Notes: generated by a model from the sequence alone, not told the origin. A DNA stretch of 64,000 nucleotides from Nanoarchaeota archaeon SCGC AAA011-G17 (GCA_000402515.1 AQRL01000038.1:37344-101343); one strand, 5' to 3'. Counted from the stretch's first letter, positions 8,184 through 55,709 are shown. Numbers and translations: made by a program.

Positions 8184-8849
8184 ATGAATTTTATTGATAC
8201 TGGGAGTGCAATTCTTAATCCGTTTCAAAGCATCTGGATTAGTTTTGTGGGGATATTACCCTCATTAATTGCTGCCCTGCTTTTGATTATACTTGGTTAT
8301 TTATTGGGGACTGTTTTGGGGCATATTCTAAAATTAGCATTAGAGAAGATTGGCGTTGAGAAGAAATTACAGAAAATAGAGCTGACAAGAAATATCGGCA
8401 AGATGCATTTCTCTGCAATATGCGGTGAATTATTGAAATGGTATGTATTAATTATATTTTTGCAGGCAGGCGTTGATTTATTAAATCTTGGAACTTTATC
8501 TGATGTCCTGACAACCTTTGTCAACTGGATGCCACAGCTTATTGTTGGTGTAATCGTAATATTATTCGGAATGCTAATTGCACATTATGTTGAATTGAAA
8601 ATCAGAGAGAACAGCGATGTTAAGGGAGTAAGACTAAGTGCAGTTGCCCTGAAATGGGTAATTGTATTTGCGGTTATATTGACTGCATTAAAACAAATCG
8701 GTCTTGATATCAGCTTGTTTGAGAATGCGTTCTATCTAGTCTTTGGTGCAATAGCAATAGGTCTTGCTCTGGCTCTTGGAATAGGATTGGGATTAGGAAT
8801 GAGAAAGGGTGGAGAGAAATTTATAGACAAGATAATGAATAACTTTTAA
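8184..8849 (+). CDS. Multi-pass membrane protein (unknown function)
   Basis: Several hydrophobic helices. SD aaaggagg upstream. The stop lies inside the 35-bp direct repeat. Confidence 0.5.
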   Translation: MNFIDTGSAILNPFQSIWISFVGILPSLIAALLLIILGYLLGTVLGHILKLALEKIGVEKKLQKIELTRNIGKMHFSAICGELLKWYVLIIFLQAGVDLLNLGTLSDVLTTFVNWMPQLIVGVIVILFGMLIAHYVELKIRENSDVKGVRLSAVALKWVIVFAVILTALKQIGLDISLFENAFYLVFGAIAIGLALALGIGLGLGMRKGGEKFIDKIMNNF

Positions 8850-8871
8850 TTCTTTTTTTTCTTTTATTTTT
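8837..8871. repeat. 35-bp perfect direct repeat, copy A (copy B at 10199..10233); spans the stops of the converging genes and a T-tract
   Basis: gaataacttttaattcttttttttcttttattttt is identical at both sites. Confidence 0.8.
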
Positions 8872-9619
8872 TTGATATTTTCCATAAAGTATAAAAGTAT
8901 TGTTTGAATCCTTCTGCAAGTGTTTTGCTTCTAATAAAAATTGTGATTTCTTTTTCTTCTTTTTTTAGAATTGGGATGATTGTGATGTCTTTGTAAATAT
9001 TTATAGGAATTGCGCTTGTTTGATCTAAGAATCTTTCTTCGTTATATTTGTTTATTTTTTGGTGGTGCTCTTTTACACCCCTTAAGTTTTTTGTAAAAAT
9101 AACCTTTGTTCTTATCTTTGCGTTTATTCTTTTTTTATGGAAGTTTAGGAAAAAATTTAATTGCTGTTTATTTAGCGTATCGTCAACACCAAATACAAGA
9201 AATTCTTCTTCTTGATTGAATTCATTTTCTACTATCTGGAAGGCATTTTTTAAACCCCGAAATCCTTCAAAGATTTCTGTTCTTTGTTTTTGTATATTTG
9301 AAGATTGAATATTCATGAGAGTTGGTAATAATTCTGAAATTTCTTTTTCCTGTTCTTTTATTTTTTCTTGTTTTTTATGGAGTAAATCCAATAAAAAATT
9401 TGGCGGAGAAGCATTGTAATGTCTAACTTTATTTTTAAAAGAGATTGAAACTAATCCTTTTTGAACTAGTTTATCAAGAATGTCATATATTTTTGATTTT
9501 GTCACCCCGGATTCCTTAACTATACCCCCTATAGATGATTGCCCTATTTTTAATAAAGCAAGATATGCTTTTACTTCTCCATTTGTTAAACCTATTTCAT
9601 ATAGAATCTCTTTGTTCAT
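8864..9619 (-). CDS. TrmB-family transcriptional regulator (paralog 1 of 3)
   Basis: N-terminal wHTH 'YEIGLTNGEVKAYLALLKIGQSSIGGIVKESGVTKSKIYDILDKLVQKGLV' is TrmB-like. It has a C-terminal sensor-like domain. Paralogs at 15977 and 19211 share the 'LWKISKK' C-terminus. Confidence 0.7.
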   Translation of the reverse strand: MNKEILYEIGLTNGEVKAYLALLKIGQSSIGGIVKESGVTKSKIYDILDKLVQKGLVSISFKNKVRHYNASPPNFLLDLLHKKQEKIKEQEKEISELLPTLMNIQSSNIQKQRTEIFEGFRGLKNAFQIVENEFNQEEEFLVFGVDDTLNKQQLNFFLNFHKKRINAKIRTKVIFTKNLRGVKEHHQKINKYNEERFLDQTSAIPINIYKDITIIPILKKEEKEITIFIRSKTLAEGFKQYFYTLWKISKK

Positions 9620-9739
9620 ATTATTTCAAGAGTATCATTACTTATAAATCTTATTATAGTATCCCCCTTAGGGGAAGGATATATTTATAAACGTATAATT
9701 TTATGATACTACTATATAATAAGTAATGGATGTAATAAA

Positions 9740-10204
9740 GTGAAAATAATAAAGAATATAGCAAAGGGAGTATTAATGGGTAGTTTAGGTGCAATTATCT
9801 TTGGGTATTTATCATATATGCCACCTAATTCAAGCAAACAGTTAGAACAACAAAGGATAGAAAAAATTAAATCTGTAATAGAACCATATCATGGAAAAAT
9901 GCTTGAAGTAACAGTTACCGGACTTGATTTTGGTCGTGGTCGTTATGGTGGTCATGGTCTAGGGATTAGATTCTATGATGTTGATGGTGATGGTAAAACC
10001 GTAGAACAGTATGTTAGATCTATTGAAACAAATACTCTACCCCCTTACTGTTATAGGTATGTTGAAACAGATTTAATAAGACAAGGTCAAAAACCAGAGT
10101 TTAACCCACAAAATATTAATAATGTAAGAAGAGAGATGACAAAAACAGAAGCAGCAATTTTGGATAAAGAGTATCAAGGTCTTTTAGGCAAGTTTAAAGA
10201 ATAA
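9740..10204 (+). CDS. Hypothetical protein with N-terminal TM anchor
   Basis: ORF with a hydrophobic N-terminus. The stop lies inside repeat copy B. Confidence 0.4.
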   Translation: MKIIKNIAKGVLMGSLGAIIFGYLSYMPPNSSKQLEQQRIEKIKSVIEPYHGKMLEVTVTGLDFGRGRYGGHGLGIRFYDVDGDGKTVEQYVRSIETNTLPPYCYRYVETDLIRQGQKPEFNPQNINNVRREMTKTEAAILDKEYQGLLGKFKE

Positions 10205-10233
10205 CTTTTAATTCTTTTTTTTCTTTTATTTTT
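10199..10233. repeat. 35-bp direct repeat, copy B
   Basis: Identical to 8837..8871. Confidence 0.8.
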
Positions 10234-11559: not shown

Positions 11560-14500
11560 TTAGATTATATGCTCTTTTCCTATCTTTGCCATAACTAAGT
11601 TATGCATCCTTTGTATGAATTCCTGTTTGTCTTCTATTTTATAGATATCTGTATGCGCCTGTATTATTAAGTTGAATGCAAATGGAGAGGGTATTGTTGT
11701 ATTTATTTCTTTTATTTTTATTTTTTCATCTTCAATCTGTTTCAGAACTAATTCTGCATTATTAATGTCCATCAGGTCTTCAAAAACCTCCCTCTTTGTT
11801 TCTTTTATTAGTGAGAAATTTGGAGAGATTCTTTTTAATGCGTTCATCAAAATCATTGAAGAGACCTGCTGCCTTCCAACTCTTTTTTTATAACCCTTAT
11901 ACTCCCTTAAAATCATTAAAGAGCGAGTTGCTACATGCCTAAACCTTCTTGAAAGAACCTGTGTTTTATCTATTGCCAGTTCCATTATTTTCTGCAGTTC
12001 AGATGATTTTATTTTTGAAAGGGCCTGTGTTGCCTGAATATTTGTTTCAGAAGAAAGATAAAAACCATTGTCGTTTATTCCTATTTCAACGTCTTTGTGC
12101 TGAAACCTTGAGATTGCATAGGCTAATGCCCTTGATAATACATCATTTACCCTCCTTCCGTATAATGAATGGAAGATTACGTATTTTTTTTTGTCTCCTG
12201 CATAGCAGTATTCAATCACGATTTTTTTATCATTTGGAATCTCTTTTTTATAGAGGAACTGCTCCCTAAAATATTCATAAATTGCATTTGCTGCATTTTC
12301 ATCTATGTAGAGATAATCGAGAATGAACTTAATAATCTCCTCTTTATTTCTTTTTGCCAGCATTTTTTCTTCAACTAACCTCCTGAATTTTCCTATTTCT
12401 AATGCCAAATCAAAGGATAAAGGAAGCATTTCTGAGAACCAGGAGGGGATTGTTGGAAGTTTGCTGACTGTTGCCTGGACTTGGGCGGTCATTCCACGAC
12501 TGAATAGGAAAATGTATCTATTTCCTCCCAATATGAAAACATCTCCTCTTTTTAGCTTCTCAAGAAATAATTCATCTATATGGCCTACAGTCTGCTCTCC
12601 TATTTTTACTGAGATAAAGGATTCATCTGGAATTGTTCCTATATTGGTCATGTAAATCATTCTTGCTAGTTTTCCCTTTTTTCCAATCATGCCTGTTTCT
12701 TTGTCATACCAGATTTTTGCATAGATATGGCGGTCTTCTAGGCTTGAATATTCCCCTGATAGATATTCTATTATTTCCCTGAAGTCTGTCATTGACAAAT
12801 CTTTATATGGGTAAGCCTGCCTTACTAGATTGTATAACTCTTTATAGCTAATCTGATTTGAGATTGCTATTCCGTAGATCTGCTGGGCAAGAACATCGAG
12901 GCAGTTTTTTGGAATGTGAATCTTGTCTATTTTTTTTTCTATTGCTGATTTTAAAAGTACAGAGCACTCTACTAAATCATCCCTGTCTAATACTATAATC
13001 CTTCCTTTTGATGTTTCATGCAGCTTGTGCCCTGACCTGCCAATTCTCTGAATCGCTCGAGCTATACTTTTAGGACTTCCCAATAGAATTACTAAATCAA
13101 TATAACCAATATCCAAACCTAACTCTAATGATGTACTACAAACAACTACCTTTAATTTTCCTTCCCTTAGTTTTTGCTCTATGTTAAAGCGGTGCTCTTT
13201 TGACAGAGAGCCGTGATGGGCTCCAATATTTTCTGTATAATTCTGGGGGAATTTATCTTTAAGATGATAGACTACTCTTTCTGTTGCTGAACGTGTGTTT
13301 GTGAATATCAGGGTTGTTTTATGTTGCTGTATCAAGGAATCAATTAAGTTATACATCTCGGTATGGAGCTTTTCTGGTTCAATATTAATTATGTCGGGCA
13401 CTGGAGAAAGAACTTTTAGATCCATTTTTTTGATAAACTGAGAATCAACTATTTTACATGGTCGTGTTTTTCCATTTTCCAGTCCTACTAAGAATTGCGC
13501 TATTTCTTCTAATGGCGAAATTGTAGCTGAAAGGCCTATTCTTGTTAGTGGTTCTTTTGTTAGGGCTTGTAATCTTTCTAGAGATAGTGATAAATGAGTG
13601 CCTCGTTTCGAATCTGCTAAGGCATGAATCTCGTCTATTACCAGATATCTTGTACTTTTTAGATGTTCTATGAATTTTGTTGAGGTCAAAACAATTGCCA
13701 ATGATTCCGGAGTACAAAGAAGAATATGGGGAGCTTTGTTGGACATCTTTTGCTTTTCAGATGCTGTTGTATCTCCTGTTCTTACTGCTATTCTTATCCC
13801 AAATTTCTTTTCTGCTAATTTTTCTATTTCTTCCAGTGGTGTTTTTAGATTAACTTCTATATCCCTTGTTAATGCCTTAAGCGGAGAAACGTAAACAGCG
13901 TATGTTTTGTCTTCCAACATATTATTTTCTGAGAGATTTATTAATTCATTTAGGATTGAGAGAAATGCTGTTAAGGTATTATGCAGGTATATTCCCCCAT
14001 ACCCTCCAACGAAATTATGTATATCTGGAACTGTTAAATCAATAACTTTTCCATTATATTCAAACTCCTTAATTTCTTTTACTTTAAGCCAACAAATATT
14101 TTTATTTAACAACTCGTCAATTTCTTTAAATAAACCATTTAAATTTTTATTATTAAACTTTATAATTTTGTTTTTTAAATTTGTTAAAGCAATTTCAGTT
14201 ATATAACCTGTTCTTCTTACTACTTCATAAATAGTTCCAAATTCTTTATTAAATTCTATATCATTTTTACATAGTTTTGACAAGTTTCTAATCTTTTTGT
14301 AATCAAATTTATGTTTTAAAACACATTCTCCGTTAGATTTTTTTAGTATTTGTTTTTCTAATAAAAAATGGTTTGGATGATCTATATCTACTTCTTCTAA
14401 GAATAATTTAATATTTTTTATTTTTCTAATAATCAAGGAATAATATTCTCTTCTAGTTTTATTTATTGTATTTGAAGCATACCTTATTGGCTTGTTTATG

Positions 14501-15858
14501 GAGGAAAATATACCCAATGATAATAGTAAATAATTGATAATTTCAATCTTATTTTTATTAGATTGATGTAAGATAATCTCTCCACCTTCTTTTGAAATTG
14601 TAGATTCCAAAGAAAAAAATACATTTAGAAAATTAGTTTTTATATCTTTCTTTGCATCAAGAAGCCAGTTTGGTAAAGAAACATATCTTCCTCTTCCGAT
14701 TTTTATTTCTAATAAATCTCTTAAAAAATAACAAAATAATGTAAAATCTACAGAATAATCTTTTTCATTTTTTTGTTTGAACTTCACATCAAATAGTTTT
14801 TTGCTATTCTTAAAAAATTCTTTTAACAAATATTTTCTATTCTTTTGTGAAACAGCTAAGTGAGTTCCCCTTTCATAATCCCCAATAAACCCCTCTGCAA
14901 GAACAAATGATAACCACCTTGCTAACTTTATATCTACTTTTTTAGGATATCTAAAAGAGAAAGTATTATTCCCCTTGTTTTTAACAATTATCCTGTTTTT
15001 TTCAAATTTAACTTTTTTACATTCTTTTTTAAATAAATTAAATAATAATTCTTTTTTATAATTTGTTTGCTTGTTGAATAAATTATATACCTGGCTTATT
15101 GATAATCCTATTTTATTCCCTAAGTCAGCAAAGGATGTTTTTTGTAAGGTCTTAATTTCATACAGTTCTTTGATAGTTAAATTATTAAAATTGTTAAAAT
15201 TATTTGTTTTCTTTTTTAATCTTAAATAATCTTCATAAATAATGGATATTCCAGCTTTATCTTTTAAATTTTGTATTGCTAGCTTGTAATCCAGAAAAAT
15301 CTCTCTCTCAGGCAATTTAATTGTTTTTGGTACAGCTATTTTATCTTCTTTTTTGATATCTTTTGCAGGAACCCATCCTTTTCCTTCAACGAGTAATGGA
15401 TGATCTTTGCTGAGTTTTATTTCCCGACCATATTCTGTCCTTATTTTCAATAATGTATCTTTGGTGTCTTCAAAATAAACTAATGCCTTTGTCTTTTTAA
15501 TTTGATTTTCGTCCAATGAAAAACTTTTTAGAGATGATAGACTGTATAACTCTCCTGTTTTATCAATATTTGTTATTTTTTTACCTTTCTTTTTTGCTAT
15601 TTCCATTAATTCTTCTGCCTTTAGCAATTTTGTACGACCATCTAACTCTAATAAAATATTTGTATCTGGAGTTATGCATTTTGTTGCTCCTGTTGGTGCT
15701 GATATTAGAATGTTATTTTCATTATGAATTTCCATTACGCCATATAGCTGTGGGAGTGAAAACTCCTTAAACTTTGTAAAGAACCACTGCTTTACTATTG
15801 GGTTTAGGATTTTCTCTATCTGCTCTTTTGTGTGAGGTTTTTCCAAATAGGTTATCAT
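11560..15858 (-). CDS. lhr: Lhr-type ATP-dependent helicase (DEAH/DExH box) interrupted by an in-frame intein
   Basis: The extein reads 'SAPTGATK|TLTAFLSIL', 'YVSPLKALTRD', 'RTGDT', 'LLCTPESL', 'LVIDEIHAL'. These are Lhr-core motifs. The extein is ~865 aa. Confidence 0.8.
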   Translation of the reverse strand: MITYLEKPHTKEQIEKILNPIVKQWFFTKFKEFSLPQLYGVMEIHNENNILISAPTGATKCITPDTNILLELDGRTKLLKAEELMEIAKKKGKKITNIDKTGELYSLSSLKSFSLDENQIKKTKALVYFEDTKDTLLKIRTEYGREIKLSKDHPLLVEGKGWVPAKDIKKEDKIAVPKTIKLPEREIFLDYKLAIQNLKDKAGISIIYEDYLRLKKKTNNFNNFNNLTIKELYEIKTLQKTSFADLGNKIGLSISQVYNLFNKQTNYKKELLFNLFKKECKKVKFEKNRIIVKNKGNNTFSFRYPKKVDIKLARWLSFVLAEGFIGDYERGTHLAVSQKNRKYLLKEFFKNSKKLFDVKFKQKNEKDYSVDFTLFCYFLRDLLEIKIGRGRYVSLPNWLLDAKKDIKTNFLNVFFSLESTISKEGGEIILHQSNKNKIEIINYLLLSLGIFSSINKPIRYASNTINKTRREYYSLIIRKIKNIKLFLEEVDIDHPNHFLLEKQILKKSNGECVLKHKFDYKKIRNLSKLCKNDIEFNKEFGTIYEVVRRTGYITEIALTNLKNKIIKFNNKNLNGLFKEIDELLNKNICWLKVKEIKEFEYNGKVIDLTVPDIHNFVGGYGGIYLHNTLTAFLSILNELINLSENNMLEDKTYAVYVSPLKALTRDIEVNLKTPLEEIEKLAEKKFGIRIAVRTGDTTASEKQKMSNKAPHILLCTPESLAIVLTSTKFIEHLKSTRYLVIDEIHALADSKRGTHLSLSLERLQALTKEPLTRIGLSATISPLEEIAQFLVGLENGKTRPCKIVDSQFIKKMDLKVLSPVPDIINIEPEKLHTEMYNLIDSLIQQHKTTLIFTNTRSATERVVYHLKDKFPQNYTENIGAHHGSLSKEHRFNIEQKLREGKLKVVVCSTSLELGLDIGYIDLVILLGSPKSIARAIQRIGRSGHKLHETSKGRIIVLDRDDLVECSVLLKSAIEKKIDKIHIPKNCLDVLAQQIYGIAISNQISYKELYNLVRQAYPYKDLSMTDFREIIEYLSGEYSSLEDRHIYAKIWYDKETGMIGKKGKLARMIYMTNIGTIPDESFISVKIGEQTVGHIDELFLEKLKRGDVFILGGNRYIFLFSRGMTAQVQATVSKLPTIPSWFSEMLPLSFDLALEIGKFRRLVEEKMLAKRNKEEIIKFILDYLYIDENAANAIYEYFREQFLYKKEIPNDKKIVIEYCYAGDKKKYVIFHSLYGRRVNDVLSRALAYAISRFQHKDVEIGINDNGFYLSSETNIQATQALSKIKSSELQKIMELAIDKTQVLSRRFRHVATRSLMILREYKGYKKRVGRQQVSSMILMNALKRISPNFSLIKETKREVFEDLMDINNAELVLKQIEDEKIKIKEINTTIPSPFAFNLIIQAHTDIYKIEDKQEFIQRMHNLVMAKIGKEHII
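13978..15678 (-). mobile_element. Intein (567 aa) with LAGLIDADG homing-endonuclease domain, inserted between Lys and Thr of the Lhr Walker-A motif
   Basis: It starts with Cys ('CITPDTNILLELDG') and ends 'VGGYGGIYLHN', followed by Thr+1. DOD motifs are 'WLSFVLAEGFIGD' and 'FLNVFFSLEST'. Confidence 0.8.
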
Positions 15859-15976
15859 TATAAAATATTAATAAATTAGATTTATAAAGGCTACGAGGGC
15901 ATGTCAAGTGTGTCAAGTGAATGGAAGATATATATTGTAGTATATACTTTAATGTCTAAAATTTCTTTTAAAAAGC

Positions 15977-16720
15977 TTACTTTTTAGATATTTTCCATAA
16001 CAATTCAAAATGCTTTCTTTGAGTTTCTGCTATTTCTCTGCTTTTTATTAAAATCCCAAAAGGTTGTGAGCCCCACATTATAATTGATACTTTTTCCCCA
16101 TAAATGTTTGTTGAGGAATTAGAAGTAAATTCTTTTGATAGTATCCTTGCTTCTGTATGTTTTAGTTTATTCAGCTCTTTAACTCTTTGTCTTAAATCTT
16201 CAGATAATAAAATTTTATAGTATATTTTCTTTTTTTCTCTTATCTTATGAAATTTTGGAAGATTAAATTGTAGATGATATTGGAATGCTTCTGCTTCTAT
16301 TTCTGATGCCCCTATTGTAAGAATCTCATCTTTTTGATTTAACATATCATCTAATAATGATTTTATCCCCCTATTCCCCTTAAAAATAGTTGCTTCCTGC
16401 TCTTCTTTCTGTCTTTTTTCTTTTAATTCTGGGAGTATTTTCTTAAATTCCTCTTCCTGCTGCTTTATTTTTTCTTTTTCTTGACTAAAATAATCTAAAA
16501 ATTGCTCTGGATTAGAAGCCTTGAAATATTTCCTATTTGCCTGTATTACATATGAAGCCAGACCCTTTTCTATTAACTTATTTAAAGCATCATAGACTAT
16601 TTGCCTGTGCAATCTCGTTTTTTCTATAACTGCTTTTGCTGATGTTAGCCCTATTTCCAGCAATGCAAGATAAACATCAGACTCATTCTTTGTTAATCCC
16701 AACTTCTCTAGTTCTTTCAT
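15977..16720 (-). CDS. TrmB-family transcriptional regulator (paralog 2 of 3)
   Basis: 'LGLTKNESDVYLALLEIGLTSAKAVIEKTRLHRQIVYDALNKLIEKGL' is a TrmB HTH. The C-terminus 'LLWKISKK' is shared with the other paralogs. Confidence 0.7.
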   Translation of the reverse strand: MKELEKLGLTKNESDVYLALLEIGLTSAKAVIEKTRLHRQIVYDALNKLIEKGLASYVIQANRKYFKASNPEQFLDYFSQEKEKIKQQEEEFKKILPELKEKRQKEEQEATIFKGNRGIKSLLDDMLNQKDEILTIGASEIEAEAFQYHLQFNLPKFHKIREKKKIYYKILLSEDLRQRVKELNKLKHTEARILSKEFTSNSSTNIYGEKVSIIMWGSQPFGILIKSREIAETQRKHFELLWKISKK

Positions 16721-16833
16721 AAATTTTGATTGATTTTTTGTTATATAAATCTTACTATTATCGTCATTTATTTGATGACAATATTTTAAATATACTATTT
16801 GTAAAAACTAGCTAGTAATGAATAAGGAAAAAA

Positions 16834-17355
16834 ATGATAGGGAAAGATGGAAGAGATTATACCTCCACGGATGCTAAAAATGCTGAATCTAGAGGAGATT
16901 ATGAAAAAGCATTTGAGATATATAAACTTGGGTGGGATAATCATGGATTAGAGCTAGCTATAAGAATAAATGATTCTAATAGGTTTAAGGAGTTTTATGA
17001 TGAAGGATTGACAATAATGATGCTTGAGAGTGAATATTTAAGGGCTCTTGAAATTGCTAAGAATAATGGAGATACAAAAAGATTAAAAGAAATTTATAAT
17101 GCAGGGTTAAATCATTTTAGTAATATAAGTTATTTTAATGAAGCAATAAAATTAGTTGAATTTATGGGTGATGACCCTAAAAGAGAGACTCTTTATCAAA
17201 AAGCAGAAGATGAAGCAAATCTGAGATTGAGTTCTTACGAGAAACAATTAAAAAAAATGTTAATGAAAGTAGGAGTATGGACTAAAATAAGAGATGCTTG
17301 TAGAGAAAGAAGTAATGTTCTCGATGATTTACTTAAAATTGAGAATAAAATATAA
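16834..17355 (+). CDS. Hypothetical protein
   Basis: ORF only, helical-repeat-like. Confidence 0.35.
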   Translation: MIGKDGRDYTSTDAKNAESRGDYEKAFEIYKLGWDNHGLELAIRINDSNRFKEFYDEGLTIMMLESEYLRALEIAKNNGDTKRLKEIYNAGLNHFSNISYFNEAIKLVEFMGDDPKRETLYQKAEDEANLRLSSYEKQLKKMLMKVGVWTKIRDACRERSNVLDDLLKIENKI

Positions 17356-17356
17356 A

Positions 17357-17716
17357 ATGGCATTTAAGAGATATGAACTAAAACTTGAAAATCGTATGGA
17401 TGAAGTATCCTGTTTATCAGACGAGAAGAAATTATTTGATAAGCAAATTAGAGATAGTTATTCTAATTGTCAGGTAAAACTTTATCCTTCTACTTATGAT
17501 ATAAATGGAAATACAATAATTATGAGGGGGGAAGAAATAAGTGATGGATATGGATATATAGATGGTCGGCTTAGATTAACAGCATTGATTATTGGAAAAT
17601 CCAAAGAAATTCTTAATGTTAAATCACGCTTGGAAAAAAAGACTTCATTTAAACTTAAAGAGTTAGAATACGATCATCGAATGAATAATCCAGAAGCTAC
17701 GATAAAACCACTATAA
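17357..17716 (+). CDS. Hypothetical protein
   Basis: ORF only. The ATG at 17357 immediately follows the upstream stop; the listed 17294 start would overlap. Confidence 0.35.
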   Translation: MAFKRYELKLENRMDEVSCLSDEKKLFDKQIRDSYSNCQVKLYPSTYDINGNTIIMRGEEISDGYGYIDGRLRLTALIIGKSKEILNVKSRLEKKTSFKLKELEYDHRMNNPEATIKPL

Positions 17717-17831
17717 CACAATCAACAAAATAAGATTAATAGAGAAAAGTAAGTTATCATTTTCTTATACAAAATAGGAAGTTATTTAAGGCTGATTAGC
17801 ATAATTATTAAAAAATAAATGGGGTGATAAA

Positions 17832-18095
17832 ATGGTTGGTTATGGTGGATCTTTGTTACCATATTTCGGTCTGAGCTTTCTTATTTTTTTAGCAGTTGCC
17901 ATGATATGGGAATTAATCTGGAAGGGCATTGCTCTCTGGAAGGCAGCGAGGAATAAAGATAATATATGGTTTATATTCCTTTTGGTATTAAATACATTAG
18001 GGATATTGCCGATAATATACATTGCTTTCTTTTCCAAGAAAAAGCCAGCAGTTGCTAAAACAGCTCCTGTTAAAAAGGCTAAGAGGAGAAGATAG
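17832..18095 (+). CDS. Small two-TM membrane protein with basic C-terminal tail
   Basis: Two hydrophobic segments, then 'KKKPAVAKTAPVKKAKRRR'. Confidence 0.4.
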   Translation: MVGYGGSLLPYFGLSFLIFLAVAMIWELIWKGIALWKAARNKDNIWFIFLLVLNTLGILPIIYIAFFSKKKPAVAKTAPVKKAKRRR

Positions 18096-18103
18096 TTTTC
18101 TTT

Positions 18104-18505
18104 TTATTTATATTTTTTAAAGAGAGTTACCAAAGAATGACCATTATATATTTTTCTTAATTTTAGTTCTGGAAAAAATTTCATTGCATCTTCATCTGCT
18201 TTTTGAGCTGATTTATATGCCCAGTGTTTTTTATTATTACATTCTTTTTTCCAGCTGCATTCTTTACATACTGAATCTATTCCTTGGACTAATCTAACCT
18301 CTAGATTAAGGTTTTCATGAAGTTTTTTGATAGTATCTCTCCAATGAAGGATTAGCTTGTCAGAATGAAAATCCTCCTTTTGCTGTCTAAATCTTTTTAT
18401 ATATTCTTCATCAGACAGATAGTAGAATTCTGGCTGTTTTTCATGCAGATAGAACCCATAAATATGGTGGGGTCTAAGTTCCAAATCAATTTTTTCTTTT
18501 TTCAT
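18104..18505 (-). CDS. Hypothetical protein with Cys cluster (CKEC...C)
   Basis: ORF only. 'RPHHIYG' and 'CKECSWKKEC' are present. Confidence 0.35.
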   Translation of the reverse strand: MKKEKIDLELRPHHIYGFYLHEKQPEFYYLSDEEYIKRFRQQKEDFHSDKLILHWRDTIKKLHENLNLEVRLVQGIDSVCKECSWKKECNNKKHWAYKSAQKADEDAMKFFPELKLRKIYNGHSLVTLFKKYK

Positions 18506-18557
18506 ATTTTTTATTTATAAAGTAAAATATATAAAGATATATGAAAGAGGTAAGTAA

Positions 18558-19214
18558 ATGTTAATCTGCGGTATTGATGAAGCTGCGAGAGGGCCTATCG
18601 TCGGTTCACTATTCATAGCAGGAGTTGTATTTGAAGAGGGAGATGTAGCTAGTCTGCAGACTGATGGTGTTAAGGATTCTAAATTACTTACACATAAGAA
18701 GAGAGAGCATCTATGCGGGATAATAAAGAAAAAGGCTGTTAGATGGAAGATAATACAAATAAAGCCTGCTGAGATTGACGAGGCTGTTGATGGAAATAAT
18801 GCTCTTAATTTAAATTGGCTAGAGGCTAACAAGACTGCTGAACTGATTAATAGTTTGAAACCTGATATGGCTATTGTTGATTGCCCGAGCCCTAATATTG
18901 AGAAGTATACTGCTTATTTAAGAAAATTATTGGATAATAAAGATGTTAAATTAGTAATTGAGCACAAGGCTGATGTTAAATATTTTCCTTGTTCTGCTGC
19001 TTCTATTATTGCTAAATGTGCAAGAGAGGATGAAGTGAAGGAGATTGAGAAAAAAATTGGGGAGAGCATTGGAACTGGATATATGAGCAATCCTATTTGT
19101 GTTGAATTTCTTAAGAATAATTGGGAGAGGCATTCTGGCTTATTCAGGCACAGCTGGCAGCCATTTAAAGACCATAAAGCCGGGAAAAAACAGAAGAGTT
19201 TGGGTGAATTTTAG
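18558..19214 (+). CDS. rnhB: Ribonuclease HII
   Basis: 'ICGIDEAARGPIVGSLFIAG' is the RNase HII active-site signature. Confidence 0.85.
   Translation: MLICGIDEAARGPIVGSLFIAGVVFEEGDVASLQTDGVKDSKLLTHKKREHLCGIIKKKAVRWKIIQIKPAEIDEAVDGNNALNLNWLEANKTAELINSLKPDMAIVDCPSPNIEKYTAYLRKLLDNKDVKLVIEHKADVKYFPCSAASIIAKCAREDEVKEIEKKIGESIGTGYMSNPICVEFLKNNWERHSGLFRHSWQPFKDHKAGKKQKSLGEF
19184..19214. repeat. 31-bp direct repeat, copy A (3' end of rnhB; copy B at 21464..21494)
   Basis: gaaaaaacagaagagtttgggtgaRttttag with one synonymous mismatch. Both copies encode ...KQKSLGEF*. Confidence 0.8.
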
Positions 19215-19963
19215 GGCTTTGCTATCTTCCATAGAAAATTGAAATACTGCTTAAAACTTTCTGCAATTTTTTCATTCTTGATCATAAAGACAAAGGGTTT
19301 TTCTTCCCATAAAAATATATAAACATAGTCTTGAAAGATATCAATGGCTCCTGGGCTAATGTATCCCTTAGGCATATATCTTACTTCACTATATTTTTCT
19401 TTTTCTCTATCTTTCCCTAATGTTTCTTTTATAGAGTTGTCTAAGATTATTTTTAATCTTTGTCTTTTCTGAGCACTTTTTAGATTCATATTTTTAAGAA
19501 AGAGCTGTAAGGATTTAGTTTCATACTGCTGTTCGGAAAACCCCAAGATGTGAATTGTTTCTTTATTAGGGCAATCATCTATTATTTTTTTGAATGCGGT
19601 CTTAAATCCTTCAAATCCTTCAAAAACGGCGGTGTTGGTTTTAAATTCTTTTTGGGTCTTTATTTTTTTTAATTCTGGTACTATTTCTTCAATTTGTTTT
19701 CTTCTTTCTTCTTCTTTTTCAAGAAACTTTTCTGGAGGAGAGGCATCGAAATATTTTCCATCTTTTTGGATAACATAAGTTACCAGCCCCTTAGAAATCA
19801 AGGAATTTAGAGATTCATAAACTCTAGAATTTGAGATTCCTGTCTCTTTTATTATTAATCCGGTAGTAATATTTGGGTTTTTCAGCAGGAATAAGTAAAT
19901 CGTTGCTTCATTCTTTGATAATCCTAATCTGATGAGTTTTTCTTTCATAATTTTGTTAACCAA
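19211..19963 (-). CDS. TrmB-family transcriptional regulator (paralog 3 of 3)
   Basis: 'LGLSKNEATIYLFLLKNPNITTGLIIKETGISNSRVYESLNSLISKGLV' is a TrmB HTH. Confidence 0.7.
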   Translation of the reverse strand: MVNKIMKEKLIRLGLSKNEATIYLFLLKNPNITTGLIIKETGISNSRVYESLNSLISKGLVTYVIQKDGKYFDASPPEKFLEKEEERRKQIEEIVPELKKIKTQKEFKTNTAVFEGFEGFKTAFKKIIDDCPNKETIHILGFSEQQYETKSLQLFLKNMNLKSAQKRQRLKIILDNSIKETLGKDREKEKYSEVRYMPKGYISPGAIDIFQDYVYIFLWEEKPFVFMIKNEKIAESFKQYFNFLWKIAKP

Positions 19964-20034
19964 TATAACTATTTAAATGTTTCTCCTTAACGGGAGAAAT
20001 AATTATTATATCTCTATTTTTATGTAGTCACTTT

Positions 20035-20733
20035 ATGATAAATACAAAACCTCAACTTTCACAAGACTTTGTGAAAATGATTAAGGGAAAGGCCAATGAA
20101 GGAACGTATAGAGTAAATGTAGATGGGATACTAATAGATGTTTTTCCTTATATATTCCCCCCAGAGTCTCCTTTCTCTGAAAGCACTCACACAGTTTATG
20201 ACCATTTTGGACGATTAAATGGAAATAGGGTTTTAGATATTGGAACGGGCACAGGAATACAAGCGATTCAAGCAACCTTAGCGGGTGCTGATGAAGTTGA
20301 TGCTGTAGATATTTATGATAAGGCAGTAGAATGTGCAGATCATAATATAAATTTGAATAGATTAGAAGGTAAAATAAACGTTTGGAAAAGTGATTTATTT
20401 AACAATGTTCCAAAGAAAGAGTATGATTTAATTATAGCTAATTTACCTATTGTTGAGGCTAAGGAAACAGATATTAGATTACATTCTTTATTTGACCCAA
20501 ACTTTGCTTATCATGAAAGATTATTTCAAGATTCTCCAGCATATCTTTCAAATTCAGGAAGAATAACTCTTTGTCATGCTAATCTCCAAAATCAAGGGTT
20601 TGAAAAATTAGAAAAAATAGCCGAAAGATATGGATTTATTCCAAATATTAAAAAATCAGTTAATTCTTTAGGTTATGAATGGAGAAATTATGATTTTATA
20701 AGCACTAAATATACTGGAGATAAAAAACAATGA
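20035..20733 (+). CDS. Class I SAM-dependent methyltransferase
   Basis: Motif I 'VLDIGTGTGIQAI', acidic 'DAVDI', motif IV-like 'IIANLP'. Confidence 0.6.
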   Translation: MINTKPQLSQDFVKMIKGKANEGTYRVNVDGILIDVFPYIFPPESPFSESTHTVYDHFGRLNGNRVLDIGTGTGIQAIQATLAGADEVDAVDIYDKAVECADHNINLNRLEGKINVWKSDLFNNVPKKEYDLIIANLPIVEAKETDIRLHSLFDPNFAYHERLFQDSPAYLSNSGRITLCHANLQNQGFEKLEKIAERYGFIPNIKKSVNSLGYEWRNYDFISTKYTGDKKQ

Positions 20734-21434
20734 ATCCTTTATTGCTAATCTTATGGATTGGAATTATTACGGCATTCTCACTTTTTGGGTCATGGTATGC
20801 TAGGAAATATAATAAACCTGACGCCCTTATTGGGTTATATGTTGCTTTTGTTTTAATAAGTAATATTATCGCTTATAAGATTGTAACTTTTGATTTTGGA
20901 TTTATCACATTTTATGCAACTTCTGCAACTTTAGTTTTTTCAGTTACTTTTCTTTTAACAGATATTGTAAATGAGAAATTTGGAAGAAAAGAAACCCATA
21001 AAATGATTTTTATAGCATTTATAACCCAATTAGCTGTTGCGCTCTTTATTCTGTTGTCTATCTATTTAAAACCCGCACCTTTTTTTACTGACCAAGAAAT
21101 TTTTGCTAAAATATTGGGATTTGCCCCAAGAATTATGATTGCATCATGGATTGCATTTTTAATAAGTGAAAATGTGGATGCTTATATTTTTGCTTGGTTT
21201 AAAAATCTCACAAAAGGAAAACACTTATGGACAAGAAATATTTTTAGTTCTATACCATCAATGGCTTTAGATACCTTAATATTTGTAACAATTGCCTTTT
21301 ATGGTGTGCAGCCCCTTTCACCCCTAATTACTGGGGTTCTTGTAATAAAATGGCTTGTGGGAATTGTTGATATCCCCTTTATGTATTTAAATAGATGGAT
21401 AATAAATTTGAAAATAAAACAAATTCTAGAATAG
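20730..21434 (+). CDS. VUT/YhhQ-family membrane protein (queuosine-precursor transporter-like)
   Basis: ~230 aa with 6 TM helices. 'FLLTDIVNEKFG' resembles the YhhQ 'ATDLTVRIFG' core. It is translationally coupled to the MTase. Confidence 0.5.
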   Translation: MNPLLLILWIGIITAFSLFGSWYARKYNKPDALIGLYVAFVLISNIIAYKIVTFDFGFITFYATSATLVFSVTFLLTDIVNEKFGRKETHKMIFIAFITQLAVALFILLSIYLKPAPFFTDQEIFAKILGFAPRIMIASWIAFLISENVDAYIFAWFKNLTKGKHLWTRNIFSSIPSMALDTLIFVTIAFYGVQPLSPLITGVLVIKWLVGIVDIPFMYLNRWIINLKIKQILE

Positions 21435-21463
21435 AAACTTTAAGGGAGCAGTATTCTCTTTTA

Positions 21464-21494
21464 GAAAAAACAGAAGAGTTTGGGTGAGTTTTAG
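21464..21494. repeat. 31-bp direct repeat, copy B (relic duplicate of the rnhB 3' end)
   Basis: Matches 19184..19214. Confidence 0.8.
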
Positions 21495-21507
21495 AAAGAT
21501 TAGTAAA

Positions 21508-21870
21508 TTACTTAATGTTTCTCTGTCTTTCTTCTAACAATAATTTGTCTGCTTTATCAAAATCTGATTTATTAGTTAGAGAATCGGATGTCCTTGTGAG
21601 AATCTTTTCTAATTTAAATATATCTCTTACCACTAATTTATCTACTCTTATCCTATCAATTGTGTTATTTCCATCAAAATTCTGATATCTGGAAACTTTT
21701 CTTCCATTTCTAGTTAATATTTCTTCGGAACCATCTTTTAGTTGAGTGTATTCAATTTTATTTCCAATACGAAAGTACCCTGTGGCTCTTGAGTTTGAAG
21801 TGAAGTTTGGATTATCAATTTTGTAATTATTAAGACTTCTCACACCAAATGTTAAAGCAGAAATCGTCAA
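21508..21870 (-). CDS. Hypothetical membrane-anchored protein (TTG start; the frame is open further upstream through a hydrophobic helix)
   Basis: ORF. The frame upstream reads '...YYQYVGLWVTGIALTISALTFGV'. Confidence 0.35.
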   Translation of the reverse strand: MTISALTFGVRSLNNYKIDNPNFTSNSRATGYFRIGNKIEYTQLKDGSEEILTRNGRKVSRYQNFDGNNTIDRIRVDKLVVRDIFKLEKILTRTSDSLTNKSDFDKADKLLLEERQRNIK

Positions 21871-22056
21871 TGCTATACCTGTAACCCAAAGTCCAACATA
21901 TTGATAATATTTTATACTACTTATTAGTGATTAAACTATATATAAAGGTTTCTTTTTTACACTAATTAAAATTTATACCATAAATCTATTATTTGATTTG
22001 CGTTTATCAAGCGATTTTTTAGAAATGTTTAAATATCTCTGTTTACCAATTTTGGA

Positions 22057-25000
22057 GTGATGGCAGTAATAGAAAAGATTAAGATGCAGGGATTTAAGTC
22101 CTTTGCCAAGTCTACTGAAGTTCCTTTAGGCAAGGATTTTAGTGTTATACTAGGCCCTAATGGCTCTGGTAAATGCCTAATTGGCAGTTCTTTAGTACAG
22201 TTAAATGATGGCTCCTTGGTTGAAATAGGTAAAATAGTTGAGGATAAATTGAAGACCAACTCTATTAAAAAAATAGATGATGGCTTTATAGCTGAAGGGG
22301 ATGATACTAAGATTATTTCTTTAAATTTAAATAACCTGAAAAATGAGGCTAAAGAGATTAAGGCTTATGTTAAAAGGGAATCTCCTGAATATTTATTAAG
22401 AATTAAGACAAGAAGCGGCAGGGAAATTACCAGTACAGAATATCATCCTTTATTTGTTTTTGAGGAGAATAGGATTAGGGCTGTTAAAGCTGACGAACTA
22501 AAAATAGGGGTTAAAATAGCTGTTCCGAGGCAGATTAGTATTGGAAAAAATAATTATTTTTATGAGTTAATTGATTTAATTGACAAAGGTGATAGAATTT
22601 ATGTTTCTTATAATGAAGAGTTTATTTGTATTTTAAATAAGTTAAAAAAATCTACATGGAAAGACTTGGCTAATGAGATAGGAATTCCTTTGAATGCTAT
22701 TAAGGGACTATTAGATAAACAGGCTATTAATTTTGCTTATTTAATTAAACTACTTAAACACTCTAAATTAAGTAATCAGGAAATAATAAAACTCATTCCT
22801 TATGTTAAATCAAAAGGCATTGAAAGAAAATATAAAGTTCCATGGTGTAATTCCAGAGAATTTTCAAGATTTTTTGGATATTTAATTGCTGAAGGAAGGT
22901 TACCAGAATCAAGTAATCAAATATGGTTTACAAATGGGGATGAGGAGATTGTTAGTGATTATGCTAATCTAGTCGCTCATTTGTTTGAAGTTAAGCCAAG
23001 CATTAATGAATATAAAGAGGGATGCTGGGATGTTTTGTTTTATTCTGTTCCAATAAGACAGATTTTAGATAAATTTGGCATGCATGTTGGTGGAAAAACC
23101 GAAAATAAAGAACTAACTAATTTATTTTTAAAAAACAGTTCTGATATAGAATTGGGAGAATTTTTATCCGGACTTTATTCCGGGGATGGCTATGTGGGAA
23201 AAAGCAGCATTGATATAATAACCAAGAGCAGAAAGTTGGGTTTTAATATTGAGAATATTTTGGTAAGATTGGGCATATTATTTAGCTCAAGATATAAAAT
23301 TAAAATTGCTACCAACAGTGGTTTTAGCGGGATTTATAGAGAAATTTCAGTATATGGCGTTGAGAATTTCTTAAAGTTTAAAAAATATGTCAATATAGTC
23401 CATAATTCAAAGAGAGAAAGGCTTGATAATCTTTTGGGCGTTAAGTCAAATCCAAATTTAGATGTTATAGATGTTAATAATTTAATAAGGAAGGTTGTTA
23501 AAGAGTTTAATATAAAAATAAAATCAAATAAGAAAGAATTTCCAAGATTAGGTGCCTATTGTTATAAACAATGTTTACCGAGCAGGAGCGGTATAAACTA
23601 TTTGATTGATAATTTGTTTTCTAACTCTAATGAACATGAGAATTTATTACTGTTAAAACAAATAGCTAACTCTGATATTTATTGGGATGAAATTATTGAG
23701 ATTGAAAAGATAAAAAGCAATGAGAAATGGGTTTATGACCTATGTATTGAAGATAATCATAATTTTATTGCGAATAATATATTTGTACATAACAGCAACA
23801 TTACAGATGCAATATGTTTTGTTCTCGGAAGATTGAGCGCCAAAAGCCTTAGAGCAGACAAGAGCGCTAATTTAATCTATAATGGGGGGAAAAAGGGGGA
23901 GCCTGCAAAAGAGGCAGAGGTAAGCATTTTGTTTGATAATTCTAATAAGTTATTTCCATTAAATGTCAGCAAGATAAAGATTACAAGAAGCGTCAGAGAA
24001 AACGGGCAGAGCAAGTACAAAATAAATGATGAAATCAGGACAAGGCAGCAGGTCATAGATTTATTGGCTGCTGGAAAGATAAATCCAGATGGGTATAATA
24101 TTGTTCTGCAGGGAGATATTACACATGTTACTGAGATGCCTACAGAGGAGAGGAGAAAGGTTATTGAGGATATTTCCGGCATTGGTGTTTATGAGGAAAA
24201 AAAAGAAAAGGCAATTAATGAATTAACAAAGGTTGATGTGAAATTAAATGAGGCAAGCATTGTTCTGAAGGAGAGAGAAACCTATCTTAGTGAGCTAAAA
24301 AAAGACAGGGATCATGCTGCTAAATACAAGGATCTTGAAGGCAATATCAAGAGGAATAAGGCTACCTTTTTGCATGTTCAGATTAATGACAAACAAAAGA
24401 AGAGGGAAGAGTTTGAAGGCAAGATTAATAAAAATCAGGAAGAGGCTGATAAGATAAGAAAGACGGTTGATGAATTGAGAGAGGAAATTAACAAAAATAA
24501 GGAAGAGATTAGTTCTATCAGCAAGGAAATAGAGGAGAAGGGAGAGAAAGAGCAGGTTAATCTTCACAGAGAGATTGAAACTGTTAAAGAGCAGAAGGCC
24601 AGAGACCAGGCAAGAATGGAGGGTTTGGGCAATGAGCTTAACAGGATTAATGAGAGAAAGAAACAATTAGAGATTGATTTAAGAGAAATAACTGAAAAGA
24701 TAAAACAACTGGAAAATGAGAGAAATAATTTAACAAAAAGAAGAAAGATTATTGTTGAAAAAGAGAGCATCATTGAAAAGAAATTAGGAGGAAAAAGAGG
24801 AGATAACAAGGAAGAGAGGGATTTAGACGAGATTGAAAAAAAGCTGGATGAAAAACAATTTATCCTGGATGAATTAAATAACAAGAAAACAATTTTGTTA
24901 AGGGATAAAGACAGATTAGACACACAGATAAATTCTCTGAATAAATTAAGCGGCGGAGATGAATTAAAAAAATTAAAAGAGTTTAAAGAGAAATTTAAAG

Positions 25001-47909: not shown

Positions 47910-48185
47910 CTATTTTTTATAAACGCATTTTCCCAAGAAGGAATAGTTAACTGCTTCTTCTATAGCTATCGGCCAGCTCATAATGCTGAAGCTTTCTCTT
48001 GTTTTTCTGAAAAGCCTTAATTCCAAATCAGCTAGCTCTTCCTCAAATTCAATATTAAATTTATAATTCGGTGAAATAAAATAATAGGTTAGATAGTTTT
48101 TTTCTTCTGGATTATGGCCCTTGTAAACTGCACTAATTATTGGATATTTATCAGCAAACTTAATTAGTTCCTTTAGAATATTCAC
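47910..48185 (-). CDS. Hypothetical protein, translationally coupled to the upstream AAA ATPase
   Basis: 4-nt overlap with 48182..48994. Confidence 0.3.
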   Translation of the reverse strand: MNILKELIKFADKYPIISAVYKGHNPEEKNYLTYYFISPNYKFNIEFEEELADLELRLFRKTRESFSIMSWPIAIEEAVNYSFLGKCVYKK

Positions 48186-48994
48186 AATCTTGACCTGTTT
48201 ATTGTTCTTTTTTTAAGCGGAAATCTTGATGGAGAAATTGGAAGTTTTGGGGCTTCTAACCCCAGTTTTCTTACATCCTCGATTTTTATTTCTTTTTCAT
48301 GCTTCTCTGCTGCTTCTTTGCATAATCTGTCCAGGTTCTGAAGCATTCTTCTTGGGTTGTAATCAGACAAAATAAATACTTTTTTTACTAATTCATCTGA
48401 GATTAATTCTAATTCCCCCACCCTGTTTCTTACCAAGTCAACTGCCTCTTCTTCTGACAATTCCTTTACCTTGAATAGATTAGTTCCTATCCTTTCTTTG
48501 ATAGACTGATGGAGATTAACTTCTCTATAGTTTGTTGCTGTAAAGACAACTGATTTGATATTGCCCTGGTCAAAGAAATATTTTATTCTTTCTGTGTTTA
48601 CCGGTGTTAAATCCTGGACCTCATCAAGGAGAACAATCATGTCCTTTGGCATCATTCCGAATAATCTTCCCCAGAAGCCGTATCTTCCACGTAATAATTC
48701 CTCTATGTTTAAGTCCTGGTCTATCCTGTTGCAGGAAAAGAAGATTACCCTCTTCTGGCCCCTGTATTTAGTTATTAAGTGATGCAGAACAGAGGTTTTT
48801 CCTGTTCCTAATGGGCCTTCTATGAAATTCATTGTTCCTGCTGGAAGCTGGTAAAACAATGATTCTAATAATTTATCCTGGCCAAAGATCTTATTATCAA
48901 ACTGGCCCGGCTTTATGCTGAAGGGACTATTAAAAAAACCGTATTTTCTAAACCATAAATCCTCTTCGTGAGCTTCTTCATCAGTATCTTTCAT
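48182..48994 (-). CDS. AAA+ ATPase (archaeal ATPase/ORC-like P-loop NTPase)
   Basis: Walker A 'GPLGTGKTS', Walker B 'VLLDEVQD'. N-terminal 'KYGFFNSPF' is typical of the Arch_ATPase family. Confidence 0.55.
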   Translation of the reverse strand: MKDTDEEAHEEDLWFRKYGFFNSPFSIKPGQFDNKIFGQDKLLESLFYQLPAGTMNFIEGPLGTGKTSVLHHLITKYRGQKRVIFFSCNRIDQDLNIEELLRGRYGFWGRLFGMMPKDMIVLLDEVQDLTPVNTERIKYFFDQGNIKSVVFTATNYREVNLHQSIKERIGTNLFKVKELSEEEAVDLVRNRVGELELISDELVKKVFILSDYNPRRMLQNLDRLCKEAAEKHEKEIKIEDVRKLGLEAPKLPISPSRFPLKKRTINRSRL

Positions 48995-49009
48995 ATTTCT
49001 AATCCTCCT

Positions 49010-49462: not shown

Positions 49463-49544
49463 GTTTATTCCTCCTTTTTGTTTTAATAAAAGGCTCTTAT
49501 TGTGTATTTAAATATTATTGTAGTAGAGTAATAAAATAGAAGTG

Positions 49545-50548: not shown

Positions 50549-50652
50549 CTTAAAATAACCTAAATTATGGTTATATTTAAACTTTTCTATTAATAATAAT
50601 TAGCTTTTGTCTGATTACCTTTACGAAATATTTATCTAAACTTGGGTGGTTG

Positions 50653-52187: not shown

Positions 52188-52409
52188 CTATATAAATCTT
52201 TCTAATTTTAGCGGAATAAATAAAAAAGAAATTATTTGTATCTGATAGTTGGCAGTTTGATAGATGAACTTACCCTCTAAAATCAAATTTTTTAAATAAA
52301 GGGTAAAGGGGAATTTATTCAAAACAAGCGTTTTTATCCCCCAGAATTGTTTGGTGCTTCATATCCCAAAATACATAATTTATATAAAGAAAAGTTAGAA
52401 TAAGATATT

Positions 52410-55708: not shown

Positions 55709-55709
55709 A

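Follow-up and report, generated by a model that had tools for sequence, protein, structure and literature searches.

The window, a 64,000-nt stretch of the Nanoarchaeota archaeon SCGC AAA011-G17 genome (AQRL01000038.1:37344-101343), contains the RNase HII gene rnhB followed by a 2.25-kb block of three genes, and the last 31 bp of rnhB recur at the far end of this block. The features between rnhB and smc are listed here in window coordinates.

18558-19214, plus strand: rnhB, archaeal RNase HII, 218 aa (PF01351, E=6e-34; tail QKSLGEF*)
19184-19214: left 31-bp copy, the functional rnhB 3' end; its last 4 nt also contain the stop codon of the convergent TrmB gene
19211-19963, minus strand: TrmB/TrmBL2-like winged-helix regulator, 250 aa (PF01978, E=3e-14; best PDB match, TrmB 3qph)
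19980-19999: palindrome TTTCTCC-N6-GGAGAAA, candidate operator between the divergent TrmB and methyltransferase genes
20035-20733, plus strand: S-adenosylmethionine (SAM)-dependent methyltransferase, HemK/PrmA/MTS-like, 232 aa (PF05175, E=2e-16; PF06325, E=5e-16)
20730-21434, plus strand: VUT/YhhQ-family queuosine-precursor transporter, 234 aa (PF02592, E=3e-45; TIGR00697)
21464-21494: right 31-bp copy, a noncoding relic after an in-frame TAG
21489-21497: TTTTAG(AAA), left copy of a 6- to 9-bp repeat around the orf21508 segment, weak if taken alone
21508-21870, minus strand: orf21508, conserved hypothetical gene (homologs with 53-82% identity)
22017-22036: putative smc promoter region TTTTAGAAATGTTTAAATAT with a TATA-like box; opens with the second copy of TTTTAGAAA
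22057-27072, plus strand: smc, 1671 aa, with an intein in the P-loop; ancestral downstream neighbor of rnhB

The 31-mer GAAAAAACAGAAGAGTTTGGGTGAATTTTAG at 19184-19214 is repeated at 21464-21494 with 30/31 identity. The sole mismatch (A19208 versus G21488) changes GAA to GAG, both of which encode Glu, and both copies translate to KKQKSLGEF*. No further match with up to three mismatches was found in the window, and a second match arose in 0/100 dinucleotide-preserving shuffles of this AT-rich sequence (GC, ~33%), none being expected by chance. Since an in-frame TAG (21462-21464) precedes KKQKSLGEF* at the position where rnhB has GGG (Gly), the right copy lies outside any open reading frame (ORF). 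The earlier note on this DNA had described the duplicated gene end with its one synonymous change and the overlap of the left repeat with the stop codon of a minus-strand TrmB paralog (19211-19213), and both observations were confirmed. The gene content that it had assigned to the block was borne out by the domain matches.

The duplicated sequence corresponds to a predicted functional unit. In Archaeoglobus fulgidus RNase HII, the C-terminal QKTLDDF is a PIP box (PCNA-interacting protein box), which anchors the enzyme to PCNA (PMC3089482). The tail QKSLGEF* of the window RNase HII matches the Q-x-x-(L/I/M)-x-x-(F/Y) pattern at its extreme C terminus, and Q-K-x-L-x-x-F* is kept in most of ~80 relatives. 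Judged by this motif, the 31 bp encode exactly the linker and the predicted PCNA-binding PIP box. A nonduplicating insertion at this point would have removed the predicted PCNA binding of RNase HII; with the duplication, rnhB is kept complete, and the left copy still ends the gene with the predicted PIP box. The 31-bp duplication could thus be explained by the need to keep this tail. Among species-representative genomes, the window RNase HII was matched best by Woesearchaeota, Pacearchaeota, and Nanoarchaeia metagenome-assembled genomes, with at most 59% identity, and a look-up of the exact protein sequence gave no record. The rnhB gene of the related locus L081 carries near its 5' end (L081 660-700) an ~30-bp insertion with a stop codon, which may reflect a pseudogene, a strain chimera, or an assembly error.

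The ancestral gene order was surveyed in 156 related loci with a complete rnhB. In 65 of them, smc is located downstream of rnhB on the same strand; ~29 have a gap of 18-140 bp, containing little beyond a TATA-like box. The corresponding gap of the window measures 2843 bp. Locus L084 (79% nucleotide identity in rnhB) lacks TrmB, methyltransferase, and VUT at this junction; its rnhB is followed by minus-strand genes for a ParE toxin and an antitoxin and then by the smc promoter of the window (L084 1603-1728 aligns to 22014-22140). There, TTTTAGAAATGTTTAAAT stands directly after the rnhB frame and again just before smc, as a direct repeat of 18 nt (exact) or 23 nt (imperfect). Because TTTTAGAAATGTTTAAAT follows rnhB in L084 and TTTTAGAAATGTTTAAATAT lies just upstream of smc in the window, the ancestral junction is reconstructed as GGTGAGTTTTAG continuing directly into AAATGTTTAAATAT, with the rnhB stop codon touching the predicted smc promoter. 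From these alignments we conclude that the 2.25-kb block is a true insertion between the normally adjacent rnhB and smc. Sister-genome loci without the insert, for which the earlier note had proposed to look, are thus at hand: they comprise L084 and ~29 Woesearchaeota relatives with rnhB abutting the smc promoter.

Other continuations were found at the same junction. Locus L081 (Hainich groundwater, 92% nucleotide identity) has the same rnhB/TrmB junction as the window, while L082 (85%) shows unrelated sequence past the rnhB stop. In L095, an 824-bp insert with a methyltransferase fragment and no TrmB gene is flanked by two copies of the 11-bp ATTTTAACGCA; the left one extends across the stop codon, and the right one abuts the TATA box. 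In L027, TTTAAATAT (14/16) fits this pattern of boundary repeats; it is AT-rich and promoter-like, and too weak to count. The unrelated sequence in L082 includes hairpin-like inverted repeats (1168-1376; tatagtaacttttatattagttac and gtagcgtagcattggcgctatgctac) and a new ORF start, and makes up a fourth variant at the rnhB junction.

The window junction probably contains two inserts, the TrmB-methyltransferase-VUT block and a separate orf21508 segment. The latter is missing from L084 and is bracketed by the TTTTAG(AAA) repeat, which in related strains reads TTTTAG or TTTTAA followed by other bases. Since orf21508 homologs are 135-143 aa long, its true start is probably upstream of 21870. The gene downstream of VUT in L167 (orf119) is not homologous to orf21508. 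The A6 run that opens the relic (21464-21470; T6 on the minus strand) lies just downstream of the orf21508 stop and persists in three relatives with a shortened relic (L173, L174, and L176); speculatively, it may now act as a T-tract terminator for orf21508. In smc, the intein interrupts the Walker A P-loop (GSGK before and SNITDA after an intein that begins with C and ends with HN). The smc gene of L176 (minus strand, ~270-1) reads GPNGSGKSNITDA and is intein free; the intein is therefore polymorphic among close strains.

The inserted module was compared with its homologs. In the TrmB-like protein, the N-terminal winged helix-turn-helix (wHTH) domain alone gave a significant PDB match (TrmB 3qph, E=0.003, the only significant one). 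The three TrmB paralogs of the window, this protein among them, scored 52.9, 51.0, and 56.5 bits with PF01978 (gathering cutoff, 25.6), and had no Pfam match past the N terminus, and thus none to the C-terminal sugar-binding domain. Their scores with the NCBIfam TrmB and TrmBL1 equivalogs were far under the cutoffs; the paralog at 8864 gave a full-length alignment with the TrmBL2 model. The methyltransferase had NCBIfam matches exclusively under their cutoffs. Its stop codon overlaps the VUT start (20733 versus 20730), and its orthologs upstream of VUT in L167 and L162 share 79-81% identity with it. VUT was assigned with 142.8 bits (Vut_1/TIGR00697; cutoff, 50.95) and 154.7 bits (PF02592; cutoff, 27.2). 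The best 120 of 989 homologs share 72-100% identity with VUT, and several of them were assigned by their sources to Woese-, Pace-, or Nanoarchaeota. VUT thus behaves as a core gene, and its conservation is far above that of RNase HII. A QueF-like gene adjoins VUT in L163-L166, and this context probably fits salvage of 7-deazaguanine precursors, with transport as the predicted function of VUT.

The whole triad of TrmB (minus strand), methyltransferase, and VUT (both plus strand) is present in L167/L168, with 70%, 79%, and 86% identity, respectively, among wholly different neighbors. Partial or variant triads were detected in L171/L172, L170, and L162. No flanking repeats surround the module in L167/L168 or in the other relatives that carry full or partial versions of it. 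In a search for a donor site, the module neighbors in L167, L162, and L171 had no homologs within the window. In L161, L167, and L168, both palindrome arms are conserved, as are the TATA-like boxes on either side, which suggests that the TrmB-like protein is a dedicated regulator of the methyltransferase-VUT operon, with the palindrome as its putative operator. The composition of the block is native: the GC content of its genes is 0.30-0.31 (0.334±0.035 for the window genes) and their codon-usage distance is 0.32-0.39 (0.351±0.059), so that GC, GC at third codon positions, and codon usage all fall within ~1 standard deviation. The foreign codon usage that the earlier note had considered for these genes was thus not found. 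Based on gene content and synteny, we conclude that a conserved regulon native to the lineage has changed its position, and that it is not recognizable mobile-element cargo.

The right junction is shared by sister strains. VUT, the relic, an orf21508 homolog in the same position, and the promoter-like sequence TTTTAGAAATGTTTAAA were present in L173, L174, L175, and L176, which are independent assemblies from Hainich samples H51 and H41 and a Logan run; L176 continues past TTTTAGAAATGTTTAAA into smc. In all four, the relic has a 5-bp deletion (GAAAAAA[CAGAA]GAG, missing bases in brackets). The TAG before it has become TAA in three of these contigs, and L175 has several more substitutions. Thus, the right copy is drifting and decaying in the sister strains. 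The left copy of L081 is identical to the right copy of the window. The arrangement is common to every close relative examined in the species-level clade. An ancient and fixed state, which according to the earlier note would speak against a recent integration, is therefore found within this clade and not beyond it. Together, these data make it reasonably probable that the insertion is a fixed rearrangement scar and not a demonstrable mobile element.

Searches for mobile-element features were negative. No match to an integrase, resolvase, rve domain, or transposase was detected with Pfam and NCBIfam in any cassette gene or in ~50 window ORFs. Terminal inverted repeats were absent from the ends of the four cassettes analyzed; the longest inverted match was 7-9 nt, a length reached by 49 to 366 of 500 shuffles. 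The repeat search of the window likewise gave no inverted repeat for this region. Rfam gave no match at E<=1 for 18000-22200 and thus revealed neither tRNA-like nor riboswitch elements at the junctions, and no tRNA was found in the whole window. The exact 22-nt repeat core had no match in IMG/VR viral contigs, and neither the TrmB gene at 19211 nor VUT had relatives among viral contigs. No contig with a circular form or with a precise empty site in the same population was found; L173 spans the region from VUT across the relic to the next gene, and L081 spans rnhB-TrmB.

Two candidates were rejected. A circular or second-context form was hinted at by the Hainich contig L161 (coverage, 24), which ends 5 nt before the right repeat and overlaps L081 (coverage, 12) by ~55 nt. 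It was dropped, since L173 from a replicate assembly crosses this region and the variants of the relic flank in L176 and L173 explain the break in the assembly graph and the coverage. TrmB as a disguised recombinase or PLD-type nuclease was also rejected: seven homologs share only hydrophobic or Gly residues as invariant positions of the C-terminal domain, with no invariant polar residues from which a catalytic site could be formed, and the window paralogs resemble only TrmB/TrmBL2.

The block is one of three TrmB-led modules in the window that are flanked by direct repeats (35 bp, 13/15, and 31 bp). The other two are composed as follows.

8837-8871: left repeat of cassette 1, 35 bp, perfect; end of a mechanosensitive (MS)-channel-like gene plus a T-rich tract; holds the stop codon of the TrmB paralog
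8864-10204: genes of cassette 1, TrmB paralog 8864-9619 (minus strand) and unknown ORF 9740-10204 (plus strand)
10199-10233: right repeat of cassette 1, 35 bp, just upstream of the rpS2 TATA box; holds the stop codon of the ORF at 9740-10204
15845-15859: left repeat of cassette 2, 15 bp (13/15); covers the start and first codons of an Lhr helicase gene (11560-15858, minus strand)
15977-17716: genes of cassette 2, TrmB paralog 15977-16720 (minus strand) and unknown ORFs 16834-17355 and ~17357-17716 (plus strand)
17747-17761: right repeat of cassette 2, 15 bp; L083 keeps one copy

Cassette 1 corresponds to the parallel "8.8-kb" cassette of the earlier note, which is indeed present with a TrmB stop codon inside its left repeat. 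Its empty site was found in L181 (73% protein identity), where the repeat sequence occurs once and the MS-channel-like gene is followed directly by rpS2; L182 has a different two-gene insert at this position. The empty site of cassette 2 was found in L083, which lacks 15860-17746 of the window. The MS-channel-like/rpS2 junction (8837-8872; L177-L182) is hypervariable, with three continuations from the same nucleotide among co-occurring Hainich strains. The L177 continuation contains an IS240-like DDE transposase gene ~2 kb from the junction and an AAA_15 ATPase gene.

The earlier note suggested that TrmB-like genes mark a family of small integrative elements. In this form, the proposal is not supported. 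All three TrmB-led modules of the window are indeed repeat flanked, and the relatives without cassettes 1 and 2 have a single copy. However, the three TrmB paralogs show only 32-39% mutual identity, and the cassettes are therefore not copies of one element. Moreover, the TrmB gene at 19211 has its conserved methyltransferase-VUT neighbor elsewhere without repeats, and inserts at the same junction occur without TrmB (the ParE/antitoxin genes of L084 and the methyltransferase fragment of L095). The boundary repeats differ from case to case in sequence and length (6-35 bp); each is copied from the local target, and in every case the end or the start of the neighboring gene is part of it. They are not shared, dif-like palindromes, since the repeats of the three cassettes are mutually unrelated copies of local gene ends. 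In the lineage, at least five independent inserts lie exactly at gene boundaries of a conserved backbone, flanked by 11- to 35-bp copies of local gene ends or promoters, with no recombinase in sight. By this comparison of junctions, the rnhB insert is one of several boundary-duplicating inserts.

Other repeats and gene modules in the window and in related loci were also recorded. The DUF1284 gene at 18104-18505 (minus strand) is present in the window, L082, and L181 and absent from L083 and L084; it is flanked by the AT-rich 12-nt TTTTTATTTATA (18101-18112 and 18508-18519), the left copy of which holds its stop codon, a repeat too low in complexity and too weak to count. In L170 (6627-6760), the 3' end of a YchF/OLA1-like GTPase gene is present in three tandem copies (period, 51-52 bp; 71-77% alike), another duplicated gene end. 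When 1.9 Mb of related loci were screened for direct repeats with a minimum length of 20 bp, 51 pairs were obtained, compared to 2 in shuffles. Only the pairs of the window were inspected individually, and the remaining ones, several of them clustered at short spacing in one locus, probably include internal gene repeats; a high frequency of long flanking repeats is not demonstrated by this screen. An intein is also encoded within the Lhr-type helicase gene and includes a homing-endonuclease domain of the LAGLIDADG type (Pfam Intein_splicing and LAGLIDADG_3); the ortholog in L182 has an intein as well. A toxin-antitoxin/defense-like cluster occupies 48182-64000 and includes a HepT/nucleotidyltransferase pair (49545-50548), a DUF6036 nucleotidyltransferase, a HipA-like fragment, a distant TrmB-domain protein (51309-52187), a wHTH-nucleotidyltransferase (58878-59420), and a HicA/HicB-like pair (~61893-62384). 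A 63- to 70-nt repeat (61247-61316 and 63732-63801) lies in small Cys-rich ORFs.

With moderate confidence, we interpret the locus as the result of one target-duplicating illegitimate, non-sequence-specific insertion in a Woesearchaeota/Pacearchaeota-type DPANN chromosome. It would have started from an rnhB stop codon abutting the smc promoter. At this point, a self-contained 2.25-kb chromosomal module, consisting of the TrmBL2-like regulator, the divergent promoter region with its palindrome, the HemK-like methyltransferase, and the queuosine/archaeosine-precursor transporter, would have entered. The event would have duplicated the 31 bp on the left side of this point, so that the left copy completed rnhB and the right copy was left behind as a noncoding relic. 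The ends may have been joined by fill-in of a staggered break or by a template switch during replication, with synthesis resuming on the template 31 nt upstream. The only microhomology visible at the TrmB-side junction is TTAG (3-4 nt). The TTA of the TrmB stop codon is native to TrmB, as L167 ends with TTATGGCTT and the window with TTAGGGCTT, and thus the repeat edge can be read as a 3- to 4-nt microhomology. Strong selection by survivorship would have followed: because spacers are very short, with the stop codon touching the TATA box, mainly junction-duplicating insertions would leave both neighbors functional. Selection on such tight spacers would account for the recurrence of these scars at the gene boundaries of these genomes. 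Recombination between two repeat copies of 31-35 bp should, moreover, be able to remove a cassette precisely, which would make the inserts reversible.

Several observations weigh against this interpretation. A perfect target duplication of 31-35 bp is long for simple break repair. Three modules of the same layout (a minus-strand regulator with its stop codon in or near the left repeat, and plus-strand cargo) within 12 kb represent a regularity beyond a purely random process. Independent inserts begin at the same nucleotide, both after the rnhB stop and after the window-equivalent position 8872, and this reuse could reflect a site-directed mechanism. In addition, the analysis of this genome was confined to 64 kb, with the donor site of the module and any second VUT copy beyond its reach, and a recombinase may possibly act in trans from elsewhere in the genome.

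The earlier note had explained the locus by site-specific integration. In this case, the block would be a small integrative or cis-mobilizable element, and the 31-bp repeats would be attL and attR. They would stem from an integrase of the tyrosine or serine type, now lost or encoded elsewhere, that targets the rnhB 3' end, and the element would supply a replacement tail in the manner of tRNA-targeting islands. Reconstitution of a gene through duplication of its 3' end is indeed the classic signature of such elements. The presence/absence polymorphism among relatives and the repeated use of the rnhB/smc and MS-channel-like/rpS2 junctions across lineages, with variants diverging at the same nucleotide, are in line with it, and a circular form would leave the convergent TrmB and VUT genes intact. 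However, neither the cassette nor the scanned window ORFs encode an integrase or transposase, terminal inverted repeats are lacking, the composition is native, and viral-contig relatives were not found. The cargo is a conserved core regulon that is repeat free elsewhere. Furthermore, the repeats at the same junction vary (31, 18-23, 11, and 6-9 bp), with the stop codon region as their sole common part, the relic decays while the insert is retained in every close relative examined, and L173 spans the junction at which the coverage difference had hinted at a second form. We therefore consider this explanation unlikely.

Import of a ready-made arrangement from a related strain, either by homologous recombination in the rnhB and smc flanks or by one-sided homology (homology-facilitated illegitimate recombination) anchored in rnhB, appears less probable still. 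In the one-sided version, the right end would have been joined 31 bp upstream of the recipient's stop codon. The junctions are hypervariable among co-occurring Hainich strains with conserved flanks, and the single mismatch could reflect divergence between donor and recipient. In L081, the left copy is identical to the right copy of the window. However, a double crossover accounts for the spread of the arrangement and not for the origin of the duplication, and the one-sided model must recur for three modules. One-sided homology-facilitated recombination predicts mostly deletions, not duplications, and among the 156 rnhB loci there was no donor with rnhB natively beside TrmB.

It is highly improbable that the block was mobilized in trans through a DDE transposase with long target duplications of variable length. 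A precedent exists in IS1634/IS1549, with target duplications of 8-514 bp and a family that is said to be frequent in Euryarchaeota (PMC2266710). The inserts are flanked by repeats of variable length (6-35 bp), and a DDE transposase gene lies ~2 kb from the MS-channel-like junction in the sister strain L177. However, that transposase matches IS240/IS6-type models and not IS1634, the cassette ends share no sequence and have no terminal inverted repeats, and none of the scanned window ORFs encodes a transposase. Finally, an assembly artefact, named in the earlier note as a possible refutation, or a chance similarity can practically be dismissed, since none of the 100 shuffles gave a second match, the left junction is present in L081, and the independent assemblies L173, L174, L175, and L176 all place the right copy between VUT and the gene that follows.

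Under the favored interpretation of a single illegitimate insertion, the result for this locus is mostly corrective: a seemingly att-flanked mini-element is the fixed relocation of a housekeeping regulon. The relocated regulon probably serves the salvage of preQ0/archaeosine precursors, which fits a reduced DPANN genome. A broader hypothesis is that Woesearchaeota-type DPANN have a dedicated or systematic, integrase-independent way of moving regulator-plus-divergent-operon modules (and toxin-antitoxin modules) into gene boundaries, with variable target duplications of ~11-35 bp that copy the neighbor's end or promoter. We regard this as quite doubtful. If it were true, very compact genomes would accept and later precisely lose cassettes without damage to the neighbors, and the duplicated rnhB tail would be one footprint among several. 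Systematic boundary-duplicating inserts would then account for the gain and loss of modules in ultracompact archaeal genomes without breaking the neighboring genes, and would provide a simple sequence signature by which such events could be dated and counted in metagenomes.

Among known systems, integrase-type islands in gene 3' ends resemble the rnhB locus in their 3'-end direct repeats that keep the gene intact, in presence/absence among relatives with single-copy empty sites (here, L084 and many species with rnhB next to the smc promoter, and L181 and L083 for cassettes 1 and 2), and in the reuse of a junction. In contrast to such islands, the locus has no integrase, no mobile-element genes, and, among the assembled contigs, no sign of excision; its composition is native, its right copy is decaying, the repeats at the same site differ in extent, and the cargo is a regulator-plus-operon unit that is repeat free elsewhere. 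Target duplications far above the usual 2-12 bp and variable per event are shared with IS1634/IS1549 (PMC2266710). Those described here (31, 35, and 15 bp in the window and 11-23 bp in relatives) are variable, unlike those of most insertion sequence families; unlike IS1634/IS1549, the cassettes have no transposase and no terminal inverted repeats, and the inserted DNA consists of ordinary cellular genes. The regulator itself resembles TrmB/TrmBL2 regulators with a divergent target operon in its PF01978 wHTH domain, its length of ~250 aa (as in TrmBL2), and the conserved palindrome between the promoters. In contrast to them, it has no match to the sugar-binding C-terminal domain, and, instead of sugar metabolism, its predicted target comprises a methyltransferase together with a queuosine-precursor transporter. 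In flexible genomic islets, T4-type phage cassettes bounded by promoters and stem-loops, and Xer/dif-bounded plasmid modules, small modules are swapped at fixed intergenic junctions. The bounding repeats described here differ from those of T4-type cassettes and Xer/dif modules, as they copy the local target, share no motif, and are not palindromic like dif. With all three systems, the inserts share the principle of self-contained modules at fixed junctions of a syntenic backbone, bounded by short repeats that contain promoters or terminators.

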